Positions 141-10,388 of a stretch of DNA of 10,388 nucleotides are shown one piece after another. The position numbers and the translations under genes were made by a program. The notes beneath the pieces were generated by a model. That model did not search any database, was not told the origin of the DNA, and worked only from the letters and a program-made list of their open reading frames with translations. Position 1 is the stretch's first letter. Each line of letters starts with the position of its first letter. The DNA is from a candidate division WOR-3 bacterium. GTDB taxonomy: Bacteria > Hydrothermota > Tepidihabitantia > SM23-42 > JAOAFX01. The stretch is from positions 1-10,388 of the forward strand of contig JBBILZ010000069.1 of assembly GCA_037444665.1 (NCBI GenBank), given 5' to 3'.

Positions 141-168
141 TTGACTTTTTATTTCTTTTGAATATAAT
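141..168 (+). promoter_or_regulatory. Putative sigma70-type promoter: -35 TTGACT (141-146), 16-bp spacer, -10 TATAAT (163-168)
   Basis: Near-consensus -35 and perfect -10 directly upstream of the first gene. The implied start site (about 174-176) is only a few nt before ATG 178. Confidence 0.7.
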
Positions 169-177
169 TCTGGTTTT

Positions 178-1182
178 ATGAATTTATTTTTGATGACCCC
201 TGAAAATTTTTCTTTATTTATTAAACGATTATCCGCGAAGGTGCAGATATTTTATCCATTTGTTGAGAATGGGAAGAGCCATATTATTGAATATAATCCA
301 GATACCAAACATTCATTTGATTTTACTAAAATCAGAACTGCTGAAAATATCAAACATTTCTTTTTTCCAAGTCGCGATATTGTTGCAAGGTTTACCAGGG
401 AATTAAATATAAGAGCAAAATCACAGGTTATAATCGGGGTCAAAAATTGCGATTTACGGGGCGTGGAAGTCTATGACCGGGTCTTTTTAAACTGGGAGCC
501 GAAGGATGATATATATAAGGAAAGAAGGGAGAATACACTAATTATCTCTGCTGATTGTCCTGAGCCTGAAGACAGTTGCTTTTGTAATCTTCTTGAATTA
601 AAACCTTATGCCACTGGAATTAGCGATGCCAATATATCTATGGTCAGTAATGGATACCTGTTTGAGATATTTACTGAAAAAGGGAAGGAGATATTGAATG
701 AATACAGGGAACTATTCAGCGAACCAAACCAGGAGATAATTAAAGAGAGAGAGATGAATCGGAAAAAAGCGGAGACAAAATTGAGTGAGATAAACAAAAA
801 GGGTCTTGGAGAGCCGATATTTGAACTTATTCCCTATGTAGGCAAAAATGAAATCAGAAATTTTCGTAATGAATGTGTTGAATGTCATTCTTGCTTACAT
901 AGTTGTCCAACCTGTTACTGTTTTCTCTTAAATGATTATAAAAAAGGTGAGGATATAGAGAGGATAAGGACCTGGGATGCCTGTTATTATGCAGCATATG
1001 CCCGGGTTGGTGGTGGTGCCAATCCCCGTAGCCGGATTGATGAAAGGTTCTGGAATAGATTCCAGTGCAAATTTGATTTTTTTTATCAATATGAAAAGAT
1101 TTATGCCTGTTCAGGTTGCGGCAGGTGTTTTTTGGGTTGTTCAGCAAAGATTGATATCAGGGAGATATTGATTAATCTATGA
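178..1182 (+). CDS. 4Fe-4S dicluster protein, AsrA / sulfhydrogenase beta (HydB) family
   Basis: 334 aa. Family motifs GVKNCD, C..(EDS)CFC, CVECHSCLHSCPTCYC, RTWDAC, RFWNRFQCKF and CSGCGRCFLGC. ATGA overlap with the AsrB-like partner. Confidence 0.9.
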   Translation: MNLFLMTPENFSLFIKRLSAKVQIFYPFVENGKSHIIEYNPDTKHSFDFTKIRTAENIKHFFFPSRDIVARFTRELNIRAKSQVIIGVKNCDLRGVEVYDRVFLNWEPKDDIYKERRENTLIISADCPEPEDSCFCNLLELKPYATGISDANISMVSNGYLFEIFTEKGKEILNEYRELFSEPNQEIIKEREMNRKKAETKLSEINKKGLGEPIFELIPYVGKNEIRNFRNECVECHSCLHSCPTCYCFLLNDYKKGEDIERIRTWDACYYAAYARVGGGANPRSRIDERFWNRFQCKFDFFYQYEKIYACSGCGRCFLGCSAKIDIREILINL

Positions 1183-1985
1183 ATCCGTATGAGCCTACTC
1201 TAACAAAGATCAAAAAGATTATTCCAGAAACACCGACCATTACTACATTTGTTCTTGAAGGAATGCCCATAGAATTTCAGGCAGGACAGTTTGCTGAGCT
1301 CACAGTGCCGGGTGTTGGTGAGGCACCTTTTACGCCGTCTTCATCACCGTATGCTAAGGACCTGGAATTTACCATTATGAAGGTTGGACGGGTTACTCAG
1401 GCATTGTTTACACTTAAACAAGGTGATACAGTTGGCGTGCGCGGACCATTTGGCAAACCTTATCCCTTAGCAAATTTTAAGAAAAAGGATGTATTTATTG
1501 TTGGTGGTGGTGTTGGTTTTGCGCCATTACGTTCGCTTTTTCTTGCTTTGGTTGAAAACATAAAGGATTATAAAAAGATTTATATACGATATGGTGCAAG
1601 GACGCCGAAGGATATCGTTTACAAATATCTTTTACCTGATTGGCATAAGATAAAGAATGTAGATATACTTCTTACGGTTGATGTTGGTGATGATGAATGG
1701 AAGGGCAGAGTTGGTGTGGTGACAACGATTCTTGATGAAATACCCGTGGATATTAAGACAACGCCGGCAATTGTATGCGGACCTCCACTAATGATGAAAT
1801 TTACGACGCAGAGGCTTGTTGACGCCGGGTTTAAAGATTCAAATATCTATCTTTCAATGGAAAAGAATATGTCCTGCGGTATTGGTAAATGTAATCACTG
1901 CCGGGTTGGTAAATTTTATGTATGCAAGGATGGACCAGTCCTGACCTGGAAGGATGTTAAGGATATAGAGGACCCCTTCCTATGA
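1179..1985 (+). CDS. FAD/NAD(P)-binding oxidoreductase with C-terminal [2Fe-2S], AsrB / sulfhydrogenase gamma (HydG) / PyrK family
   Basis: 268 aa. FQAGQF, GEAPF, RGPFG, VGGGVGFAPLRS (nucleotide binding), VCGPPLMM and SMEKNMSCGIGKCNHC-x7-CKDGP. Confidence 0.92.
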   Translation: MNPYEPTLTKIKKIIPETPTITTFVLEGMPIEFQAGQFAELTVPGVGEAPFTPSSSPYAKDLEFTIMKVGRVTQALFTLKQGDTVGVRGPFGKPYPLANFKKKDVFIVGGGVGFAPLRSLFLALVENIKDYKKIYIRYGARTPKDIVYKYLLPDWHKIKNVDILLTVDVGDDEWKGRVGVVTTILDEIPVDIKTTPAIVCGPPLMMKFTTQRLVDAGFKDSNIYLSMEKNMSCGIGKCNHCRVGKFYVCKDGPVLTWKDVKDIEDPFL

Positions 1986-3574
1986 ATGAATCAAATCCGA
2001 AATACGAAATAGATTCCAAAAGTCAGATTAGAAAGACTCTCTGCACCTTCTGCGGATTCGGTTGCGAATTAGGAATTATCTCTAATGACTTCGGGCTCAG
2101 TGGTGTGGAGTATTTGCGAGATACACCAAACCAGGGCAGGGTCTGTCCGCGCGGCAGTGCCTCAGTGTTATATTTAAACCATCCCCGTCGCCTCTGTGTG
2201 CCGGTAAGTAAAAATAAATACACTGGCTGGGATTGGGTAAAGGAAGAGTTTAAGAATATGCTGAAGAACCCGAATGAAGTGGCGATAACCGTGGATAGGA
2301 ATATTACCATTGAAGAAGAGTTAGCAATTTTAAATTTCAGCAATAAATATAAAATAAAAAATGTAGTTTCAACCTATTTTGAACCAGAATCATTATTGGA
2401 CCGTTTTATTGATGAAAAAGCTCCAGCTTGCCTTGAAGATATTGAGAGGAGTCAGATGGTGATTGTGCTGGGTGATATTTTCAATTATGCACCAATGATT
2501 TCTAAGAATCTAATTTCCTGGAAGTTCGCCGATAGAAAAAATCGGCTCGTGGTGATTGATTCCCTGCATACGCATACTTCTTACTTTGCTACTGATTTTC
2601 TCAAGACAGAACCAGGAGCCGAGGCTCTCGTCCTGCTCAGCCTTGCTCGGGAAAAATTATCCGGCATAGATTTTCAGAAATTGACGGGTGTTTCGGAAAG
2701 TTCTATCCTGAGTATTGCCGAAGATTTTAAGTCAGCAAAGAATGGTTTGATTATTGCAGCAATGCCATTTAGCCACAGTTATGAGCCACTATTAGTGGTT
2801 GAAGGGCTCCATAGGTTGAGTGAATTTAGTGGCAAAAAAGTAATGCCCATTTTTGAATTTGGTCATTACAGAAGATTGAATCCATTTGGCAGGGTATTAA
2901 ATTTAATAGAAGAGGGTGAGATAAAATATATAATAAATTTTGGAGAACTATTTCCTTTCTATTATCCACAATTTAATAAAAAATTTTCTAACATAAAGAT
3001 TTATTCTACATCAACACTGCGATTTAATAATTATGTTCAGTTGCCTGCTGCCTTAAATATGGAAAAGTCAGGAACGATTCTGACGACATTTGGTAAGAAG
3101 ACATTGGATGGTTCTGTATCAGCAGTGAGTGGTGCGAAAAATATTATTCAATTATTTGATTTACTTGGTGTGGAAACAGGTAGTTCAACATCAGAGTCTG
3201 CTGATGCAAAACGGATTGATATCAAAGATGGATTGAAGAAAATGACAGAAAAGATAAAACAAAATAGAGATGGAAAATTTATGCTTTTTGGAGAAAAAGT
3301 TTCGTATTATTATTTAGGCTTATTGGAAAAACCGATTTTGAAAATTAATCCCCTGGATGCCCAGAAATATGGTATAAAATCAGGGGAGACTGTTTATGTT
3401 GAATCAAAAAATAACAAGGTAAAGATGCCAGTTAAGATAACCAGTGATATTCCGCAGGGCACTTTATTTAGTCAAGCCGAGACACCTGAAGTCTGTGGTC
3501 TTTTTGACTACGAAATTTTTGATGATTATCTCTATTTTAATCCTACTGGAGTAAGGATATGGCAAGAAGAATAG
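1982..3574 (+). CDS. Shortened molybdopterin-oxidoreductase-fold (FdhF/NuoG-C-like) protein with an N-terminal [4Fe-4S] motif; probably non-catalytic
   Basis: 530 aa. CTFCGFGC...CPRG cluster motif, HPRRLCVP, LVVID, LPAALNMEKSGT and a C-terminal dinucleotide-binding-like domain (INPLDAQKYGIKSGETVYVES). ATGA overlap, with GAGGA upstream. Confidence 0.8.
   Translation: MNESNPKYEIDSKSQIRKTLCTFCGFGCELGIISNDFGLSGVEYLRDTPNQGRVCPRGSASVLYLNHPRRLCVPVSKNKYTGWDWVKEEFKNMLKNPNEVAITVDRNITIEEELAILNFSNKYKIKNVVSTYFEPESLLDRFIDEKAPACLEDIERSQMVIVLGDIFNYAPMISKNLISWKFADRKNRLVVIDSLHTHTSYFATDFLKTEPGAEALVLLSLAREKLSGIDFQKLTGVSESSILSIAEDFKSAKNGLIIAAMPFSHSYEPLLVVEGLHRLSEFSGKKVMPIFEFGHYRRLNPFGRVLNLIEEGEIKYIINFGELFPFYYPQFNKKFSNIKIYSTSTLRFNNYVQLPAALNMEKSGTILTTFGKKTLDGSVSAVSGAKNIIQLFDLLGVETGSSTSESADAKRIDIKDGLKKMTEKIKQNRDGKFMLFGEKVSYYYLGLLEKPILKINPLDAQKYGIKSGETVYVESKNNKVKMPVKITSDIPQGTLFSQAETPEVCGLFDYEIFDDYLYFNPTGVRIWQEE
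1993..2013 (+). repeat. Heptamer repeat remnant AAATCCG-AAATACG-AAATAGA inside the 5' end of the CDS
   Basis: 1982-2010 matches 5983-6011 at 25 of 29 nt (manual alignment). Confidence 0.65.
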
Positions 3575-4026
3575 TGCTTGACCTTGACCTGTGCTGTGGC
3601 TGCCGTTCCTGTGAGGCAGCATGTAAGGTTGCATTCAAAGGTGAATCACGGATAAGGCATGCAGATATTGAGAATACAGCATATCTTCCATTAGCCTGTA
3701 AACACTGTAAAGAAGCACTGTGCCTTGCTTCTTGCCCGGTAAATGCAATAACTCGTGATGAAAAGACCGGGCTTGTAACAAGGTCTTCATTTGTATGCAT
3801 TGGTTGCAAAAGTTGTGCCTATGCCTGCCCATTTGGGGTGATTGATGCACCACTTGTGCGCCATATTTCTCAGAAGTGTAGCCTCTGTCAAGATCGTGCA
3901 GAGGGTCCGCGATGTGTTTCTGCCTGTTCCTCAGGTGCACTCCAGTTCCTTGAAGAAGCAGAGATTAAAAAAATGGAAATTGGTGTGCGTATGGTTTCTA
4001 AAGATACTTTTGTGCGGAGACGATAA
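3559..4026 (+). CDS. 4x[4Fe-4S] ferredoxin-like electron-transfer subunit (HycB/HydN/DmsB family)
   Basis: 155 aa. CCGCRSCEAAC, CKHCKEALCLASCP, CIGCKSCAYACP and KCSLC...PRCVSAC. GGAG at 3548-3551. Confidence 0.92.
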   Translation: MARRIVLDLDLCCGCRSCEAACKVAFKGESRIRHADIENTAYLPLACKHCKEALCLASCPVNAITRDEKTGLVTRSSFVCIGCKSCAYACPFGVIDAPLVRHISQKCSLCQDRAEGPRCVSACSSGALQFLEEAEIKKMEIGVRMVSKDTFVRRR

Positions 4027-4946
4027 TGAATGTTATAAGACTTTTGTTCAATTATTTTATTTTTCCTGGTTTTCTGTTCACTGCAATTGTTGGTATGCTT
4101 TTGACTTGGATTGACCGTAAAGTTAGTGCCAGGGTTCAGATGAGGGTAGGGCCTCCCTGGTTTCAACCTTATGCTGATTTTTTCAAATTATTATTAAAAG
4201 AAACAATCGTGCCTGAAGGTGCTTCAAAAATTCTCTTTTTTCTCGGTCCGATACTTGGGTTGGTTGCAATGACAATCTTTTCCGTAATGTTATTCACTAT
4301 GAACTTTTCTTCAGCAAGATCTTTTGCCGGAGATTTGATTGTGATGATCTATCTACTCGCTCTACCACCAATCGGTGTAATAATTGGTGGCTCTGCATCA
4401 AAGAATCCGCTGGCGAGCGTTGGTGCATCCAGAGAGATGACCCAGTACTTTGCATATGAATTGCCATTTTTAATTGCCATCGCCGGTATCGTGCTCAAAG
4501 CAGGAGGCATAATTAAGGTTGGTGAAATTATTGAAGTCCAGAGGTCAGCCGGACCATTCCTGTATTCTATTTCAGGAATAATCTTTGGCGTGGTTATGTT
4601 AATGGCGGTCCAGGCAAAATTGGGATTTGTGCCTTTTGATATTCCTGAAGCAGAGCAGGAGATAATGGCAGGTCCATATATAGAATATTCTGGCGTTGCC
4701 CTGGCAATTTATAAAATTACAAGGGCAATGATGTTGTTCTTGTTACCGATATTTACGATTTCACTTTTGTGGGGTGGTATTGGAGACTGGTGGGCAATTT
4801 TAAAATTTTTATTAATAATTGTGCTCGTGATACTGATAAAAAATACAAACCCGAGATTGCGCATTGACCAGACACTGAAGTTTTTCTGGATTGGTATGGG
4901 AATTTTATCAATTGTTGGACTTGTTTTGGCAATCTATGGATTATAA
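4026..4946 (+). CDS. Membrane anchor subunit, NuoH/MbhM/HycD family
   Basis: 306 aa, hydrophobic. DRKVSARVQMRVGP, QPYADFFKLLLKE, PFDIPEAEQEIMAGPYIEYSG and PRLRIDQ. TAATG overlap. Confidence 0.93.
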   Translation: MNVIRLLFNYFIFPGFLFTAIVGMLLTWIDRKVSARVQMRVGPPWFQPYADFFKLLLKETIVPEGASKILFFLGPILGLVAMTIFSVMLFTMNFSSARSFAGDLIVMIYLLALPPIGVIIGGSASKNPLASVGASREMTQYFAYELPFLIAIAGIVLKAGGIIKVGEIIEVQRSAGPFLYSISGIIFGVVMLMAVQAKLGFVPFDIPEAEQEIMAGPYIEYSGVALAIYKITRAMMLFLLPIFTISLLWGGIGDWWAILKFLLIIVLVILIKNTNPRLRIDQTLKFFWIGMGILSIVGLVLAIYGL

Positions 4947-4951
4947 AAAAG

Positions 4952-4998
4952 AAGAGGCTAAAAAGGGCAAAAAAGGGCTCAAAATGGCTATATGGCTA
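4952..4998 (+). repeat. Degenerate 8-11 nt tandem repeat (A-tract plus GGC(T/A) core) in the intergenic gap
   Basis: AAAAAGGGC at 4960-4968 and 4970-4978; ATGGCTA at 4984-4990 and 4992-4998; GAGGCTA at 4954-4960. Confidence 0.6.
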
Positions 4999-5029
4999 AA
5001 ACAGCATATGAGTAAAAAAGGAGTAAAAC

Positions 5030-5446
5030 ATGGCAAATCTTAAACTCTGGGGTTTAAAAAAGTCTCCCTGGGTATTCCATGTTGCGGCAGCGTCCTGTAA
5101 TAATTGTGATATTGAAATTCTTGATGTTCTGACCCCAAGATGGGATGTGGAGCGTTTTGGGATTGTGCTTGTTGGTTCACCAAGGCATGCAGATGCCCTA
5201 CTGGTGACCGGTGTGTTAAATCGCAAAAGTTTGCCCCGTGTCTTGAGGGTTTATGAACAGACACCCAAACCCTGTTTGGTTATTGGTGTGGGCACCTGCA
5301 CCTGTCATTGCCATATGTTTGAAAAATCTTACAATGTTGTTGGTCCTTATGATAAACATCTGCCCGTAGATGTGTATATTCCGGGTTGCCCACCAAAACC
5401 TGAAGCAATTATTATGGGTGTGGTAAAGGCATTGAAGAGGCTATAA
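5030..5446 (+). CDS. Group 4 [NiFe]-hydrogenase small subunit (NuoB/MbhJ/EchC-like)
   Basis: 138 aa. SCNNCDIE (CxxC, hydrogenase type rather than the NuoB CC), SPRHADALLVTG, GTC and PGCPPKPE. AAGGAG ribosome site at 5018-5023. Confidence 0.93.
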   Translation: MANLKLWGLKKSPWVFHVAAASCNNCDIEILDVLTPRWDVERFGIVLVGSPRHADALLVTGVLNRKSLPRVLRVYEQTPKPCLVIGVGTCTCHCHMFEKSYNVVGPYDKHLPVDVYIPGCPPKPEAIIMGVVKALKRL

Positions 5447-5456
5447 TGGAAAACAT

Positions 5457-5520
5457 AAATTTAAATTCTAATTTCAAAGCACGAAATCCTAAACAATATA
5501 CAAATTTCAATTTTTCAAAC
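5457..5520 (+). repeat. Degenerate A-rich arm of the heptamer element family
   Basis: Contains AAAGCACGAAATCCTAAACAATATACAAATTTCAA (5476-5510). It shares CGAAATCCT/AAACAA with 6013-6057 and matches the reverse complement of 6101-6135 at 27 of 35 nt. Confidence 0.7.
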
Positions 5521-5549
5521 TTGTTTTTTTGCATTGGGTATTAGATAAG

Positions 5550-5990
5550 ATGAATAAGGAATATTCAAAAGAACTCTTAGATAAAATAAAAGAAAGATTT
5601 CCTGAAGTGGAGATAAAGATTCATTCACCAAGGCGCACCTATCTAAGGATTGAACGCAATAAGGTTTATGAGTTTGCCCGTTATCTTTTCCTTGAATTAA
5701 ATATGAGATTATCAATTGCTACGGGTATTGATACGCGCGACGGCATTGAAATATTATACCATTTTTCTCATGACCCTTCAGGAACATACTACAATATAAA
5801 GACTATTGTGCCCAAAGATGATCCCAAAATAAAGAGTCTTGCTGATTTTCTGCCTGCCGCAAACTGGATAGAAAGAGAGATTCATGAATTACTGGGAGTT
5901 AATTTTGAGGGACATCCAAATCTTGTGCCCCTTTTGACTGCTGAAGACTGGCCCGAAGGTGTTTATCCATTGAGGAGAGATTATGAATAA
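5550..5990 (+). CDS. NuoC/MbhK/EchD-like hydrogenase subunit
   Basis: 146 aa from ATG 5550, preferred over TTG 5529, which lies in the repeat-bearing spacer. RLSIATGID, EILYHFS and PAANWIEREIHELLGVNFEGHP. Confidence 0.9.
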   Translation: MNKEYSKELLDKIKERFPEVEIKIHSPRRTYLRIERNKVYEFARYLFLELNMRLSIATGIDTRDGIEILYHFSHDPSGTYYNIKTIVPKDDPKIKSLADFLPAANWIEREIHELLGVNFEGHPNLVPLLTAEDWPEGVYPLRRDYE

Positions 5991-5993
5991 TTC

Positions 5994-6149
5994 AAATTCG
6001 AAATTCGAAATCCGAAATCCTACGCCAAAGGCGAATCTGCCTCAGGCAGAGAAACAAATTCAAAGTCTCAAATTCCAAACAAATCAAAAATGTTTAAATA
6101 TTGGAATTTGGATATTGTTTGGTTCTTGGTGCTTGGGATTTGGGTTTTC
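5994..6149. repeat. Miniature palindromic heptamer-repeat element (A-rich left arm, T-rich right arm) with a nested double hairpin
   Basis: AAATTCG x2, AAATCCG and AAATCCT at 5994-6021. Perfect inverted repeat CAAATTCCAA (6069-6078) / TTGGAATTTG (6101-6110). The right arm is built of TTGG-xxx units. Hairpins CGCC-AAA-GGCG (6023-6033) and TCTGCC-TCA-GGCAGA (6036-6050). Confidence 0.8.
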
Positions 6150-6176
6150 AGACGAACAAGGCGAGGTTATCTTTTT

Positions 6177-7352
6177 ATGAGGCGGATTGTTCCTATTGGT
6201 CCTTATCATCCACTGCAGGAAGAGCCTGAGTTTTTTAAATTGATTGTTGAAGGAGAGAAGGTCGTTGACCTTGAAATAAATATTGGTTACAATCACCGCG
6301 GACATGAATACATCGCCCAGACAATGACCTTTGACCAGGTGCCATTTTTAGTGGAGCGTATCTGTGGAATTTGTTCAGATTCCCATCCATATGCCTATGT
6401 CCTTGCTGTTGAGGATATCTTAAAGATAAAACCACCAGAGCGAGCACAGTATATCAGAACAATAATTGGTGAACTGGAGAGGATCCATTCCCATTATCTC
6501 TGGCTTGGCCTTGCCGGACACTTTATTGGTTATAATACGGTCTGGATGTGGGTATGGCGTTATCGTGAGCCCCTACTTGATCTATTTGAATTGATAATGG
6601 GTAATCGGAACCACTATGCAATCAACAAGATTGGCGGGGCAAGAAGGGATATATTGCCCGAAGACTATCCAAAGATTGAAAAATATCTTGATTTGATAGA
6701 GGAGAAGACCGAGATGTTCACAAAGGCAATCCTTGATGACCCGGTAATTCGGGCAAGGCTTGAAGGTATAGGGGTCCTTCCTAAAGAGGATGCTATTGCT
6801 TATGGAGTCTTAGGGCCAACTGCCCGTGCCTCTGGTGTTGCGATTGATGTGCGTAAGGATGACCCTTATGATGCCTATGATAAGGTTGACTGGAATATTG
6901 TAGTATTTGAAGAGGGCGATGTTCTGGCAAAGGCAAAGGTGAGATTATTAGAATGCTTTGAATCAATAAAGATAGTCAGGCAGTGCCTTAAGAATATGCC
7001 TGAAGGACCAATAGAGGCACGAATAGATGATATTCCTGCGGGCGAAGGAATTGGCAGGCATGAGGCACCAAGGGGTGAGGTCTTCCACTATGTCCGTTCT
7101 GATGGTTCAAATATACCAATAAGGCACAAGATTCGGGCACCAAGTTATATGAACATTGCTTCCAATGTGGTTGCAGTAAAAGGTTATTCAATTGCGGATG
7201 CAGCACTTGTGCTTGCTGCAGTAGACCCCTGTTATTGCTGCACAGAGAGAACAATCGTTTATGAGAATGGAAAGCCTAAATACACAGGTAAGGACCTACT
7301 CACCTTATCCTGTAAAAAGACTGAAGAACTGCGCAGGAGATATAGAAGATGA
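6177..7352 (+). CDS. Group 4 [NiFe]-hydrogenase large catalytic subunit (NuoD/MbhL/HycE-like)
   Basis: 391 aa from ATG 6177 (MRRIVPIGPYHP, GAGG at 6163-6166); the track start at 6090 lies inside the repeat element. L1 motif ERICGICSDSH, EAPRGE, and L2 motif DPCYCCTER followed by a 33-aa tail. Confidence 0.95.
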   Translation: MRRIVPIGPYHPLQEEPEFFKLIVEGEKVVDLEINIGYNHRGHEYIAQTMTFDQVPFLVERICGICSDSHPYAYVLAVEDILKIKPPERAQYIRTIIGELERIHSHYLWLGLAGHFIGYNTVWMWVWRYREPLLDLFELIMGNRNHYAINKIGGARRDILPEDYPKIEKYLDLIEEKTEMFTKAILDDPVIRARLEGIGVLPKEDAIAYGVLGPTARASGVAIDVRKDDPYDAYDKVDWNIVVFEEGDVLAKAKVRLLECFESIKIVRQCLKNMPEGPIEARIDDIPAGEGIGRHEAPRGEVFHYVRSDGSNIPIRHKIRAPSYMNIASNVVAVKGYSIADAALVLAAVDPCYCCTERTIVYENGKPKYTGKDLLTLSCKKTEELRRRYRR

Positions 7353-8557
7353 ATATGGAATTTAATTTTCTATTTGACCGATTTGGAATATTTTTATCCA
7401 TCACATTTATCTTTATTGGGCTAATGTCTTTTATCTATGCCCTTGCTACTATTAAACAAAAAGGGCACAAACTTGAATACTATATAATGCTACTTTTGAT
7501 TGTTCTCTCTGGTGTTGGTGTTGCACTCTCTAACAACATACTGTTTATATATATCTGCTGGGAAATCGCAACATTTGCAGTATGGAGGGCAGTTGTTTTC
7601 TACCGTAATCCTGACCAGGTCTCTTCAGGTAATATTGTCTTTATCACAAATTTTATTTCAGGTGCAATAATGCTCATTGGTATTGGAATTTTGTATCTGG
7701 ATAATAATTCACTGGTAATTTCTCATATTGGACAGTTAAATCTTACTGCAATTATACTGATTACGATCGGAATCTTCACAAAATCGGTTATCCTACCTCT
7801 ACATTTTTGGCTCATTCCTGCGTATTCTTCAATCCCATCAGCAATTGGAGGTTCGCTTGCCGGTATTGCTGAAAATCTCGGTCTTATTTTATTTTACAGA
7901 CTCTTTTCTACAAATGTATATGTGCCTGATGAATTTTTTGCTGTTGTAGCCTGGCTTGCAGTCATCTCCAGTTTGATTGCTGGTGGTGCTGCATACAGGA
8001 CAAATCGTTTGAGATATCTGCTTGCCTATTCAACCATCAGTCAGGTGGGTTTTATTCTGTTAGGTTTTTCTGCCAGAGGACAGTTTGGTAATTCAGGGGC
8101 AATGTTATATATCCTTGCCCATGCTCTGGCAAAATCAGGGCTATTTTATGGAGTGGGCACAATTGAAGATATAACGGGTGAGGCAAATATAAAAAATATT
8201 TCCTGTATGTTAAAGGTTTCTCCTATCTTGACTGTGATGATGGCATTGTTATTCAGCTCTCTCGTTGGCTTTTTCCCGATGATTGGTTTCTTCTCAAAAT
8301 TGATGGTAATCATTGGCGCCCTACAGAAAAATATCTATTTTGGATTCTTTGCAATTGCTTCTGCAATATTTACCCTTTTATACAGTGACCGTTTCTATCA
8401 TGAATTATTCTATGGCGAGAAGTGTGATATTAAGGAAATTAAATCAACAAGAAAGGTGGGTATTGTGGAGATTATTGTGGTGTTCATTCTAATGCTATCT
8501 TCATTATTATTGGGAATATTTTTCTATGAAATCCTGGCATTTATTGGAGGTTTCTGA
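7349..8557 (+). CDS. Proton/cation antiporter-like membrane subunit (MrpD/NuoM-N/HyfF family), short at the N-terminus
   Basis: 402 aa, highly hydrophobic. ICWE, TKSVILPLHFWL, LLAYSTISQVGF, HALAKSGLF and GFFSK. ATGA overlap, with AGGAG upstream. Confidence 0.9.
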   Translation: MNMEFNFLFDRFGIFLSITFIFIGLMSFIYALATIKQKGHKLEYYIMLLLIVLSGVGVALSNNILFIYICWEIATFAVWRAVVFYRNPDQVSSGNIVFITNFISGAIMLIGIGILYLDNNSLVISHIGQLNLTAIILITIGIFTKSVILPLHFWLIPAYSSIPSAIGGSLAGIAENLGLILFYRLFSTNVYVPDEFFAVVAWLAVISSLIAGGAAYRTNRLRYLLAYSTISQVGFILLGFSARGQFGNSGAMLYILAHALAKSGLFYGVGTIEDITGEANIKNISCMLKVSPILTVMMALLFSSLVGFFPMIGFFSKLMVIIGALQKNIYFGFFAIASAIFTLLYSDRFYHELFYGEKCDIKEIKSTRKVGIVEIIVVFILMLSSLLLGIFFYEILAFIGGF

Positions 8558-10388
8558 TGCGTGAAATATATTATGTTCTGTTACTGCCAGTAATGTGTGG
8601 ACTTTTAGGGTTTTTAATAAAGAGATTGCGTAATGAAATGGGCTTTTTAGGTTTTGTTCTTACACTATATTTTTCATTAAGGTTCTTTCTCCTATTCCAG
8701 AATCAGTCATTTTCTTATGATATTGCCAGTATTGCAGGTATTGATTTCAGAATCTATGTGGACAATCTCACAAGATTTATTTTATTATTTAATGCGCTCT
8801 TTGCCTTTCTTATTTTGTTATATTCAGTTGTGGCAATGAGAAAGATGCCAGGTGAATCTGTGTATCAATTGTATCTTGGTTTGACCCTTTCTGGTGCAAA
8901 TGGCGTTGTGCTGAGTGGTAATCTTATTATGCTTTTAATCTTCTGGAATATGTTGGTGTTTTCGCTTTACGGAATTCTTCTTGTAGGTAAAAAAGATAGT
9001 GTTCTTGCAGCAAGAAAGGCATTGACGATTATTGGCGTTTCAGATTTTATAATGATGTTGGGAATTTTGATAATTTATGTGCTAATGGGTGATGCCAATT
9101 TTCCGGTGAGCCAAAAATTGCCCTTGGGCAATGGAATTTACATCGCAGTATATGTTCTCTTGCTTGTTGGTGCCCTTGCCAAGGCAGGAGCAATGCCACT
9201 ACATACCTGGATACCTGAATCTGCAAAGGTCGTGCCCGCATCAACTATGGCTTTTATCCCCGCAAGTCTTGATAAACTATTAGGCATCTATTTTCTGGTG
9301 CGTATCTCTTATTATCTTTTTGATATCAGTCAGTCAATGCCCATTAGAATAACACTTATGGTTATCGGTTCAATTACCATAATCTTTGCGGTGATGATGG
9401 CGCTGGTGCAGAAAGAAGTGATGAGATTGTTGTCTTTCTGCGCAGTATCCCAGGTAGGGTATATGTTTTTAGGCATTGGAACCTGTATTCCAATTGGAGT
9501 AGCAGGTGGGCTGTTCCATATGATTAACCATACAATATATGATGCCTGCCTGTTTTTATCTGCAGGTTCTGTTGAATACCGGACACGGACTACAGAACTT
9601 GATAAACTTGGTGGTCTTGGTGTGAAGATGCCGCTCACAATGTTCTGTTTTATTATTGCTGCATTTGCCATCTCTGGTGTGCCACCATTTAATGGATTTT
9701 ATTCAAAATGGATGATTTACCAGGGTGTGATTGAACTGCATAAACAAACAAATCTCTGGGTAATATTTTTGGTCGCTGCAATGTTCGGCAGTGTTCTGAC
9801 CCTTGCTTCGTTTTTGAAAATGATACACTCTCTGTTTTTAGGTGAAAGACCAAGAGAACTGGACAAGGTTTGTGAAGCACGATTTGGTATGGTGGCGCCG
9901 ACACTAATACTTGCCTTATTGTGTATTATTTTTGGCATATTTGCTGAACAGATTCCCCTTGCGCATTTAATCTATCCATCTTTGCCTTTTCTAAGGGTAG
10001 AAAAGATTGGTTTCTGGTCAGCAGAACTTACTACAATCTTGATGATACTTGGTATTGTCATCGGTTTGATTATCTTCCTGTTGGGCACAGGGCTCAAGCC
10101 CAGGAAGTCAAAGGTTTTTGTCGGTGGTGAAGTTCTTGATGCAGAACAGGCGCGTATCACCGGTCCGAATTTTTATTCTTCAGTCCATAATATTGATATG
10201 CTGGAGAAGACTTATCAATTTGGTGAAGGAGGTGCGTTTGACTTCTACAATTATCTGCGCGGTATATTCGGTGGTTTTTCTGTTATCTTTCGTGATGTAA
10301 TAAATCAATTTTTCGTAATTTTCTATCGCTCATTAGCAGGGGTTATTCAGGCACTGGGCAGGGTATTTTCTGCAATCCATAATGGTGA
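8557..10388 (+). CDS. Antiporter-like membrane subunit (NuoL/MrpA/HyfB family), 3'-truncated by the window and absent from the ORF track
   Basis: Translated by hand: ATG 8557 (TGATG overlap, GGAGG at 8546-8550) stays open for 610 codons to the window end. MREIYYVLLLP..., AKAGAMPLHTWIP, PASLDKLLGIY, SQVGYMFLG, ELDKLGGL, SGVPPFNGFYSKW and a C-terminal ...FSAIHNG. Confidence 0.92.
   Translation, partial: MREIYYVLLLPVMCGLLGFLIKRLRNEMGFLGFVLTLYFSLRFFLLFQNQSFSYDIASIAGIDFRIYVDNLTRFILLFNALFAFLILLYSVVAMRKMPGESVYQLYLGLTLSGANGVVLSGNLIMLLIFWNMLVFSLYGILLVGKKDSVLAARKALTIIGVSDFIMMLGILIIYVLMGDANFPVSQKLPLGNGIYIAVYVLLLVGALAKAGAMPLHTWIPESAKVVPASTMAFIPASLDKLLGIYFLVRISYYLFDISQSMPIRITLMVIGSITIIFAVMMALVQKEVMRLLSFCAVSQVGYMFLGIGTCIPIGVAGGLFHMINHTIYDACLFLSAGSVEYRTRTTELDKLGGLGVKMPLTMFCFIIAAFAISGVPPFNGFYSKWMIYQGVIELHKQTNLWVIFLVAAMFGSVLTLASFLKMIHSLFLGERPRELDKVCEARFGMVAPTLILALLCIIFGIFAEQIPLAHLIYPSLPFLRVEKIGFWSAELTTILMILGIVIGLIIFLLGTGLKPRKSKVFVGGEVLDAEQARITGPNFYSSVHNIDMLEKTYQFGEGGAFDFYNYLRGIFGGFSVIFRDVINQFFVIFYRSLAGVIQALGRVFSAIHNG

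Follow-up and report, generated by a model that had tools for sequence, protein, structure and literature searches.

The stretch of DNA analysed here (the window; 10,388 nt) is the entire contig C69 (JBBILZ010000069.1) of a 2.54 Mb, 99.5% complete genome from a candidate division WOR-3 bacterium (G000; GCA_037444665.1). It covers the leading half of a Hun operon, in which a group 4 [NiFe]-hydrogenase is encoded together with a full Mrp antiporter. We lean, modestly, toward the view that the Hun product oxidises NADH to H2 via a flavoprotein module of its own, and that its role is the disposal of fermentative NADH as H2. Group 4 hydrogenases characterised to date draw, to our knowledge, on ferredoxin, formate or CO. 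The architecture of the operon has already been published; what is new here is a class-wide subunit that appears to be free of molybdenum, and sequence evidence for the use of NAD(H).

All ten genes of the window lie on the + strand, and gene calls and domain searches agreed with the list of genes and types given in an earlier, sequence-only reading of this DNA. As in Hun, asrA-, asrB- and hycB-like genes are followed in one operon by nuoH-, nuoB-, nuoC- and nuoD-like genes, without asrC, the large subunit carries CGIC and CYCC motifs, and there is an Mrp (MnhA-G-like) module with a terminal NuoI-like gene. The first five genes overlap, and spacers of 83, 103 and 186 nt come after them (gaps between consecutive genes, 1 to 10: -4, -4, -16, -1, 83, 103, 186, -4 and -1 nt). 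The start of a second contig, C68, overlaps the window end by about 80 nt, with mismatches, and completes the cut MrpA/NuoL-like gene; C68 (locus L002) also carries mbhDE, mnhB-G and a 201-aa HycF/NuoI-like gene (5574-6176). In genome G008 (L036) the same gene order, combining the window and the C68 parts, is found on a single contig. We read the window genes, from this arrangement, as one operon that continues onto C68. The sequence-only reading had described an operon with a complete hydrogenase core and two antiporter-like subunits; the single operon stands, but the core is incomplete in the window, with the NuoI/HycF-like gene and the remaining Mrp genes on C68.

The case for NADH begins with the first two genes. 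HunA (334 aa; 178..1182) is an AsrA/HydB-like Fe-S protein with a Fer4_22 domain and cysteines that are invariant in 57 aligned rows, and its only PDB match is the beta subunit of sulfhydrogenase 1 (9nez_B, E 4e-30). HunB (268 aa; 1179..1985) is an AsrB/HydG-like FAD/NAD(H)/[2Fe-2S] flavoprotein (Pfam FAD_binding_6, NAD_binding_1 and DHODB_Fe-S), for which the closest solved structure is the gamma subunit of the same enzyme (9nez_C, E 2e-52). Both proteins score below the curated cut-offs for HydB, HydG, AsrA and AsrB, and, unlike for the group 3b sulfhydrogenase and AsrAB, no alpha/delta subunits or AsrC were found to partner them. HunB has retained its glycine-rich nucleotide loop together with the CGPP motif and the [2Fe-2S] cysteines; residue D168 is Asp in 48 of 48 rows, and the four C-terminal cysteines are likewise invariant in these rows. 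At the aligned position, where NAD and NADP users are inferred to differ, the NADPH-type sulfhydrogenase 1 gamma subunit has Thr, and the NAD+-using PyrK and NfnA also have an Asp in this part of the sequence. Work on the FNR family indicates that Asp at this position selects NAD(H). HunB thus has, at the sequence level, the FAD domain, nucleotide loop, acidic ribose residue and [2Fe-2S] cysteines of an NAD(H)-linked FNR-type flavoprotein, and it looks NAD(H)-specific.

Regulation points the same way. A scan for Rex-type palindromes before hunA (up to two mismatches; the consensus agrees with that in the accessible part of PMC2883068) found boxes at 15 of 86 loci, where base shuffles predict 0.2. 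A search for rex itself, which covered 49 of 52 intended loci plus G000, found the gene in 12 of the 15 box-carrying genomes versus 12 of the 35 others. In L089 rex lies directly upstream, and gene maps place a gene of the same size there in L091 and L092. Together, the sequence and Rex evidence favours NADH over the ferredoxin donor published for Hun. The NAD(P)H flavin input proposed in the sequence-only reading therefore survives in the form of an apparently intact NAD(H)-type flavoprotein, which seems to fit the sequence better than ferredoxin does.

The flavoprotein module keeps company with the group 4 hydrogenase in other genomes, a synteny that the sequence-only reading had put forward as a check. 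Among 40 loci of relatives, picked for holding gene 3, 37 have the first eight genes in the same order and 38 the first five; one further locus (L073) stops at a contig edge. A second set, not selected on the module, consisted of the best 80 of at least 565 loci found by the large subunit, with the CYCC motif as one search pattern; five of the 80 duplicate contigs within the gene-3 set. Their titles name Omnitrophota, Elusimicrobiota, Planctomycetota, Clostridia, Nitrospirota, Caldisericota, Eisenbacteria, Latescibacterota, Chitinispirillaceae and proteobacteria. In this set, asrA-, asrB- and hycB-like genes lie upstream in all 52 loci in which nuoH is present with 3.5 kb or more of sequence ahead of it. 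The other 28 loci were not counted, most being too short upstream, and one of them (L112) has the module though the script mis-scored it. L095 (Nitrospirota) has three inserted genes of 153, 668 and 310 aa between hunB and hunC (3378-6847); the idea of a CO dehydrogenase at this place was not supported, the three genes having no Pfam match at 1e-8.

The third gene (1982..3574) encodes a 530-aa protein with the Mo-bisPGD fold of FdhF and one [4Fe-4S] motif. Its AlphaFold model (pLDDT 92.3) shows the fold shared by FdhF, NapA and NuoG; of the structures listed, FHL (formate hydrogenlyase) FdhF, 7z0t_A, gives the highest TM-score (0.80), and NuoG is also among the fold matches. In an alignment of 44 copies, to which two intact formate dehydrogenases (FDHs) from Clostridia loci were added as reference rows, the [4Fe-4S] cysteines C21/C24/C28/C55 are kept in every copy, and the Mo-binding Cys-His of FDH in none (TYFE in the window versus RLCH in FDH). 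The protein is also about 160 aa shorter than intact FDH. The genes for the cofactor are correspondingly scarce: among 61 genomes, moaC turned up in one and so did moeA, and, with working controls, moaC was detected in 3 and fdhD in 1 of the 117 genomes of the class. None of moaC, moeA and fdhD was found in G000, in searches whose controls were positive in 11, 11 and 8 of 14 genomes, respectively. A gene 3 profile matches 109 of the 117 genomes of the class and 130 of the 242 of the phylum (E <= 1e-30), where three of the weakest phylum-level matches are, by length, probably true FDHs. Retention in 109 genomes, nearly all of them without cofactor genes, is most simply explained by a metal-free scaffold or a single-cluster relay. 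The gene is present in nine of the 52 assessable Hun loci and absent from 43, so its product is not an obligatory donor enzyme. Judged by these features, the subunit is likely not a formate dehydrogenase and likely a molybdenum-free, cofactor-free scaffold. The Mo-enzyme fold recognised in the sequence-only reading is present; what that reading missed is the likely cofactor-free state and the absence of the gene from most Hun operons.

Several observations surround this subunit. G015 is the only near relative with moaC, moeA and fdhD (C70 2122-3064; C176 2253-2948), which may reflect recent gain or contamination of the bin. The next gene encodes HunC (155 aa; 3559..4026), a HycB/CooF-like protein with four [4Fe-4S] clusters by alignment (Fer4_11; HydN/DmsB-type NCBIfam matches). 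The N-terminal half of HunC is about 50-90% identical in operons with the Mo-fold gene versus about 30% in those without it (3559-4026 compared with L085-L154), as expected if that half were the docking face, and some HunC proteins are without a first-cluster cysteine. Complex prediction for HunA, the Mo-fold subunit (residues 16-520) and HunC, with scores of 0.28 and 0.17 against a mark of 0.32, is not used as evidence. In two Clostridia loci (L089 567-5711; L091 358-5500, the latter by gene map), an intact FDH, a second asrA-like gene, mobA, fdhD and rex lie directly upstream of Hun. This arrangement is a candidate formate-linked Hun, and it hints at an FDH-linked ancestor.

The hydrogenase core is encoded downstream by a NuoH/HycD-like membrane subunit (306 aa; 4026..4946; PF00146, E 2e-66), the NuoB-like small subunit (138 aa; 5030..5446; PF01058), a NuoC-like subunit (146 aa; 5550..5990; PF00329) and the NuoD-like large subunit HunG (391 aa; 6177..7352). 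HunG has both Ni-binding motifs, RICGIC and DPCYCC, with the four Ni-binding cysteines, and G000 encodes HypD and HycI, which together indicate a true hydrogenase; the retained NiFe ligands make protons, not quinone, the expected acceptor. The best PDB matches of HunG are MbhL (6cfw_L) and HycE (7z0s_E). Two antiporter-like genes follow: an extra 402-aa subunit (7349..8557; PF00361), missing from most loci of other phyla according to gene maps, and the MrpA/NuoL-like subunit (8557..10388), which is cut by the contig end and is 633 aa long in G008. The latter has three invariant lysines and, in 66 of 69 copies, is missing the glutamate of transmembrane helix 5 (TM5); the residue at that position, 131, is Asn in the window and Gly in 58 of 69 homologs. 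In three WOR-3 loci (L041, L047 and L048) an MrpA-like gene is fused to 830 aa, the order is swapped and mnhB-G do not adjoin. Among NuoI-like chains, the best match of the HycF/NuoI-like subunit on C68 is HycF of FHL, so that the electron arm resembles FdhF-HycB-HycF. Outside its two cluster motifs, this subunit has four invariant cysteines (C125, C128, C186 and C189) that could form an additional metal site.

In the mechanism we propose, NADH would give a hydride to the FAD of HunB, whose [2Fe-2S] cluster would pass electrons to HunA. From there they would run through HunC and the HycF-like subunit to the small subunit and the NiFe site, in an arm built like that of Escherichia coli FHL. The place that FdhF occupies in FHL would be taken by the FdhF-fold subunit, which would have no catalytic activity and would act as a scaffold or as a relay with one cluster, comparable to NuoG in complex I. 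Through the NuoH/Mrp arm, turnover would be coupled to the movement of ions, with the reaction from NADH to H2 running near equilibrium. E. coli FHL (group 4a; 7z0s/7z0t) has the same FdhF-fold, HycB-like and HycF-like proteins with small and large subunits, whereas the FdhF homolog of the window is without the Mo ligand and Hun adds an AsrAB-like flavin module and a full Mrp. Pyrococcus MBH (group 4d; 6cfw) shares the group 4 core with an Mrp module but has no flavoprotein module and, in the part of the record available, takes its electrons from ferredoxin. The NuoEFG part of complex I likewise places a flavin input and a Mo-free FDH-fold subunit with one [4Fe-4S] cluster ahead of a NuoI/B/C/D arm; Hun has an FNR-type flavoprotein instead of NuoF. 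More tentatively, and at a confidence short of even, we suggest that Hun is an NADH-coupled, energy-converting, complex-I-like hydrogenase with an FNR-type rather than NuoF-type entry, and that its WOR-3 form independently repeats the history of NuoG: an FDH that persisted, as a metal-free scaffold, throughout a class that lost Mo-cofactor synthesis, and that was dropped in most other phyla.

The energetics limit how such an enzyme could work. Calculated from standard potentials with NADH equal to NAD+, the formation of H2 from NADH comes to about +18 kJ/mol at 1 bar H2, -5 at 10 Pa and -16 at 0.1 Pa, compared with about -30 kJ/mol at 10 Pa from ferredoxin at -450 mV. Mbh and Ech export ions during H2 evolution. 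With an Mbh-like polarity, NADH-fed Hun could conserve energy only at sub-pascal H2; otherwise a favourable net ion flux would have to come from Mrp exchange, which is possible. Both directions offered in the sequence-only reading (gradient-driven H2 from NADH, and energy gain from H2 to NAD+) need a net ion polarity opposite to that of Mbh and Ech, which only an unusual Mrp stoichiometry would give.

A number of points weigh against an NADH-oxidising Hun. The reaction is uphill above roughly tens of pascals of H2, with little left for pumping, and the missing TM5 glutamate makes the pumping ability of the MrpA-like subunit uncertain, so that coupling may differ from the models. One of the 48 rows with D168 is a group 3b gamma subunit (L137), so this Asp is not Hun-specific. 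The Rex boxes belong to loci of other phyla: none was found in the WOR-3 loci scanned, a scan that did not include the window, and no Rex match was found in G000; the core of the Rex palindrome is also found in CRP-family sites, and the loci with boxes include kin and are not independent. Two loci (L046 and L068) stop partway through the module, and L124, where nuoC-nuoD-nuoI stand with no module in the 9.5 kb upstream, is a genuine exception. Finally, the link from HunAB to the hydrogenase arm is inferred from sequence.

The rest of G000 bears on which partners and donors are available. The asrC family (PF01077, NIR_SIR) was absent from the G000 search, whose control was positive in 11 of 14 genomes, and no second asrA homolog was found in this 99.5% complete genome. 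No group 3b alpha/delta genes were found; the only other group 3 large subunit detected in G000 adjoins mvhG and mvhD. The absence of asrC and of a group 3b partner, noted for the window in the sequence-only reading, is matched by these searches of the whole genome. G000 also encodes a second group 4 large subunit with a DPCICC motif (L001 4191-7044, on C89), nuoEFG-like genes with nfnAB-like genes (L004 7166-13886, on C10), mvhADG (L003 8596-11475, on C16), two Rnf/Nqr membrane genes (C12) and a single FeFe-hydrogenase-family match of 422 aa.

Operons of this kind have been noted before. A 16-gene operon was named Hun (hunA-P) and assigned to group 4g, with CGIC-CYCC as the HunG signature (bioRxiv 10.1101/536078). 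In the accessible part of that preprint, HunAB are likened to AsrAB without AsrC, ferredoxin is the predicted donor, and a molybdopterin-domain (4Fe-4S) gene is reported between hunB and hunC in some metagenome-assembled genomes; in that part, the Mo-domain protein is left unexamined and WOR-3 is not named, while Kosmotoga, which has been cultured, is listed as a carrier. The window has the same gene set and order, AsrAB-like head and Mrp module, and adds one antiporter-like gene and the finding that the Mo-domain protein is nearly class-wide and without the Mo ligand. Saganbacteria RX5A has an 'enigmatic' group 4 hydrogenase with the same arrangement, including the Mo-family gene (PMC6349859), and Elusimicrobia have an 'Mbh-Mrp-oxidoreductase type' (bioRxiv 10.1101/765248). 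In the portions of these papers available, asrA-, asrB- and cooF-like genes and an unclassifiable one-[4Fe-4S] molybdopterin-family protein lie beside the Mrp subunits and the group 4 core; a NuoEF-like role as an oxidoreductase module is proposed, the donor is left unknown, and the Mo-family protein is taken as a putative molybdopterin enzyme. The novelty of the architecture, raised in the sequence-only reading, has therefore been overtaken by print. No biochemical study of Hun was found in the literature searched, which covered few subscription journals.

The published alternative is a ferredoxin-driven, Mbh-like pump, in which HunABC or the HycF-like subunit would be the docking site of reduced ferredoxin and H2 evolution would export ions, with HunB as an NAD+-reducing side exit or with ferredoxin and NADH used together. 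We consider this rather unlikely, while giving it real weight. A ferredoxin donor has been proposed for Hun itself (bioRxiv 10.1101/536078), which speaks against NADH, and for group 4g generally (PMC8542988), in the accessible text of each; the energetics at 10 Pa H2 are comfortable, Mbh polarity is kept, and among PDB chains the large subunit matches MbhL best. The argument for ferredoxin relies on AsrAB accepting ferredoxin electrons, and it is undercut by the description of AsrABC as NADH-linked (PMC10949509, in its available part). A ferredoxin pump also leaves the intact NAD-binding site, invariant in all 48 rows, unexplained, and the second group 4 enzyme and Rnf/Nqr-type membrane genes of G000 could handle ferredoxin. 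We know of no bifurcating flavin in the HunB fold, which also weighs against this alternative. An uptake enzyme, which we think improbable, would use the same NAD(H) module to oxidise H2 and reduce NAD+, driven by ion influx at nanomolar H2, as in an Ech-like reverse reaction, and running downhill at high H2. Below about 10 Pa, electron transfer from H2 to NAD+ runs uphill, so operating the Mbh polarity in reverse would suit low-H2 habitats, and WOR-3 has been called hydrogenotrophic (PMC12542636, as far as its available text goes). Against uptake, Rex boxes imply induction at high NADH, the opposite of what an NADH-making enzyme needs, and G000 already has MvhADG for H2 uptake.

Two further alternatives concern the partners of the hydrogenase. 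HunAB could be co-transcribed with Hun and act separately as a soluble NADH:ferredoxin or NADH:Fe-S-protein reductase, or with HdrA/Mvh in a Flx-like manner. AsrA/AsrB-type pairs do serve several partners (AsrC, group 3b hydrogenases and also Flx), and G000 has MvhADG and large flavoproteins on C18. A separate module is nonetheless very improbable in our view, given its near-absolute linkage to the Hun core across phyla, the overlapping reading frames, and gene maps in which no mvh-like genes matched inside Hun operons. A formate hydrogenlyase-like enzyme, with the Mo-fold subunit as an active FDH or other Mo/W enzyme feeding the hydrogenase, would accord with the closeness of the fold to FdhF and NapA, with the intact FDH genes, mobA and fdhD just upstream of Hun in the two Clostridia loci, and with the FDH annotated in the available part of the WOR-3 literature. 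For G000 it is nearly refuted, and we give it hardly any credence: the Mo-ligand Cys/His is missing from 44 of 44 copies of a protein some 160 aa too short, moaC and moeA went undetected in all but one of 61 genomes, the class-wide counts are 3/117 for moaC and 1/117 for fdhD, and 43 of 52 loci do without the subunit.

Other features of the window are peripheral to electron flow. The best sigma-70-like match of the window is a promoter candidate at 141..168 on the + strand, before gene 1, with 11 of 12 consensus positions; this is a consensus match only. Overall, 34 sigma-70-like sites were found versus 32.9 expected, a chance level, and the promoter and terminator scan gave no information beyond the strong site. 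Near-identical copies of positions 1-129 occur close to or directly at the ends of contigs C42, C17, C18 and C27; this segment is probably a repeat, or the end of an insertion sequence, at which the assembly broke. The spacers at 5447-5549 and 5991-6176 contain a short AT-rich repeat of which the genome has many copies (one 11-mer occurs 27 times); G008 has nothing that corresponds to the 186-nt spacer. Two genes for 23S rRNA-intervening-sequence (four-helix-bundle) proteins (C68 728-1132 and 2087-2524) interrupt the Mrp genes of C68, at positions that vary among relatives. The spacer repeats and intervening-sequence genes are likely a family of small mobile elements.

Since the operon already has a name, the value of this work lies in a sharper, testable hypothesis. 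The Mo-free subunit matters for annotation, as the formate dehydrogenases reported for WOR-3 may partly be this protein. If Hun does use NADH, many uncultured anaerobes would have an unrecognised membrane route from NADH to H2, and the enzyme would offer a present-day parallel to the transition from hydrogenase to complex I.

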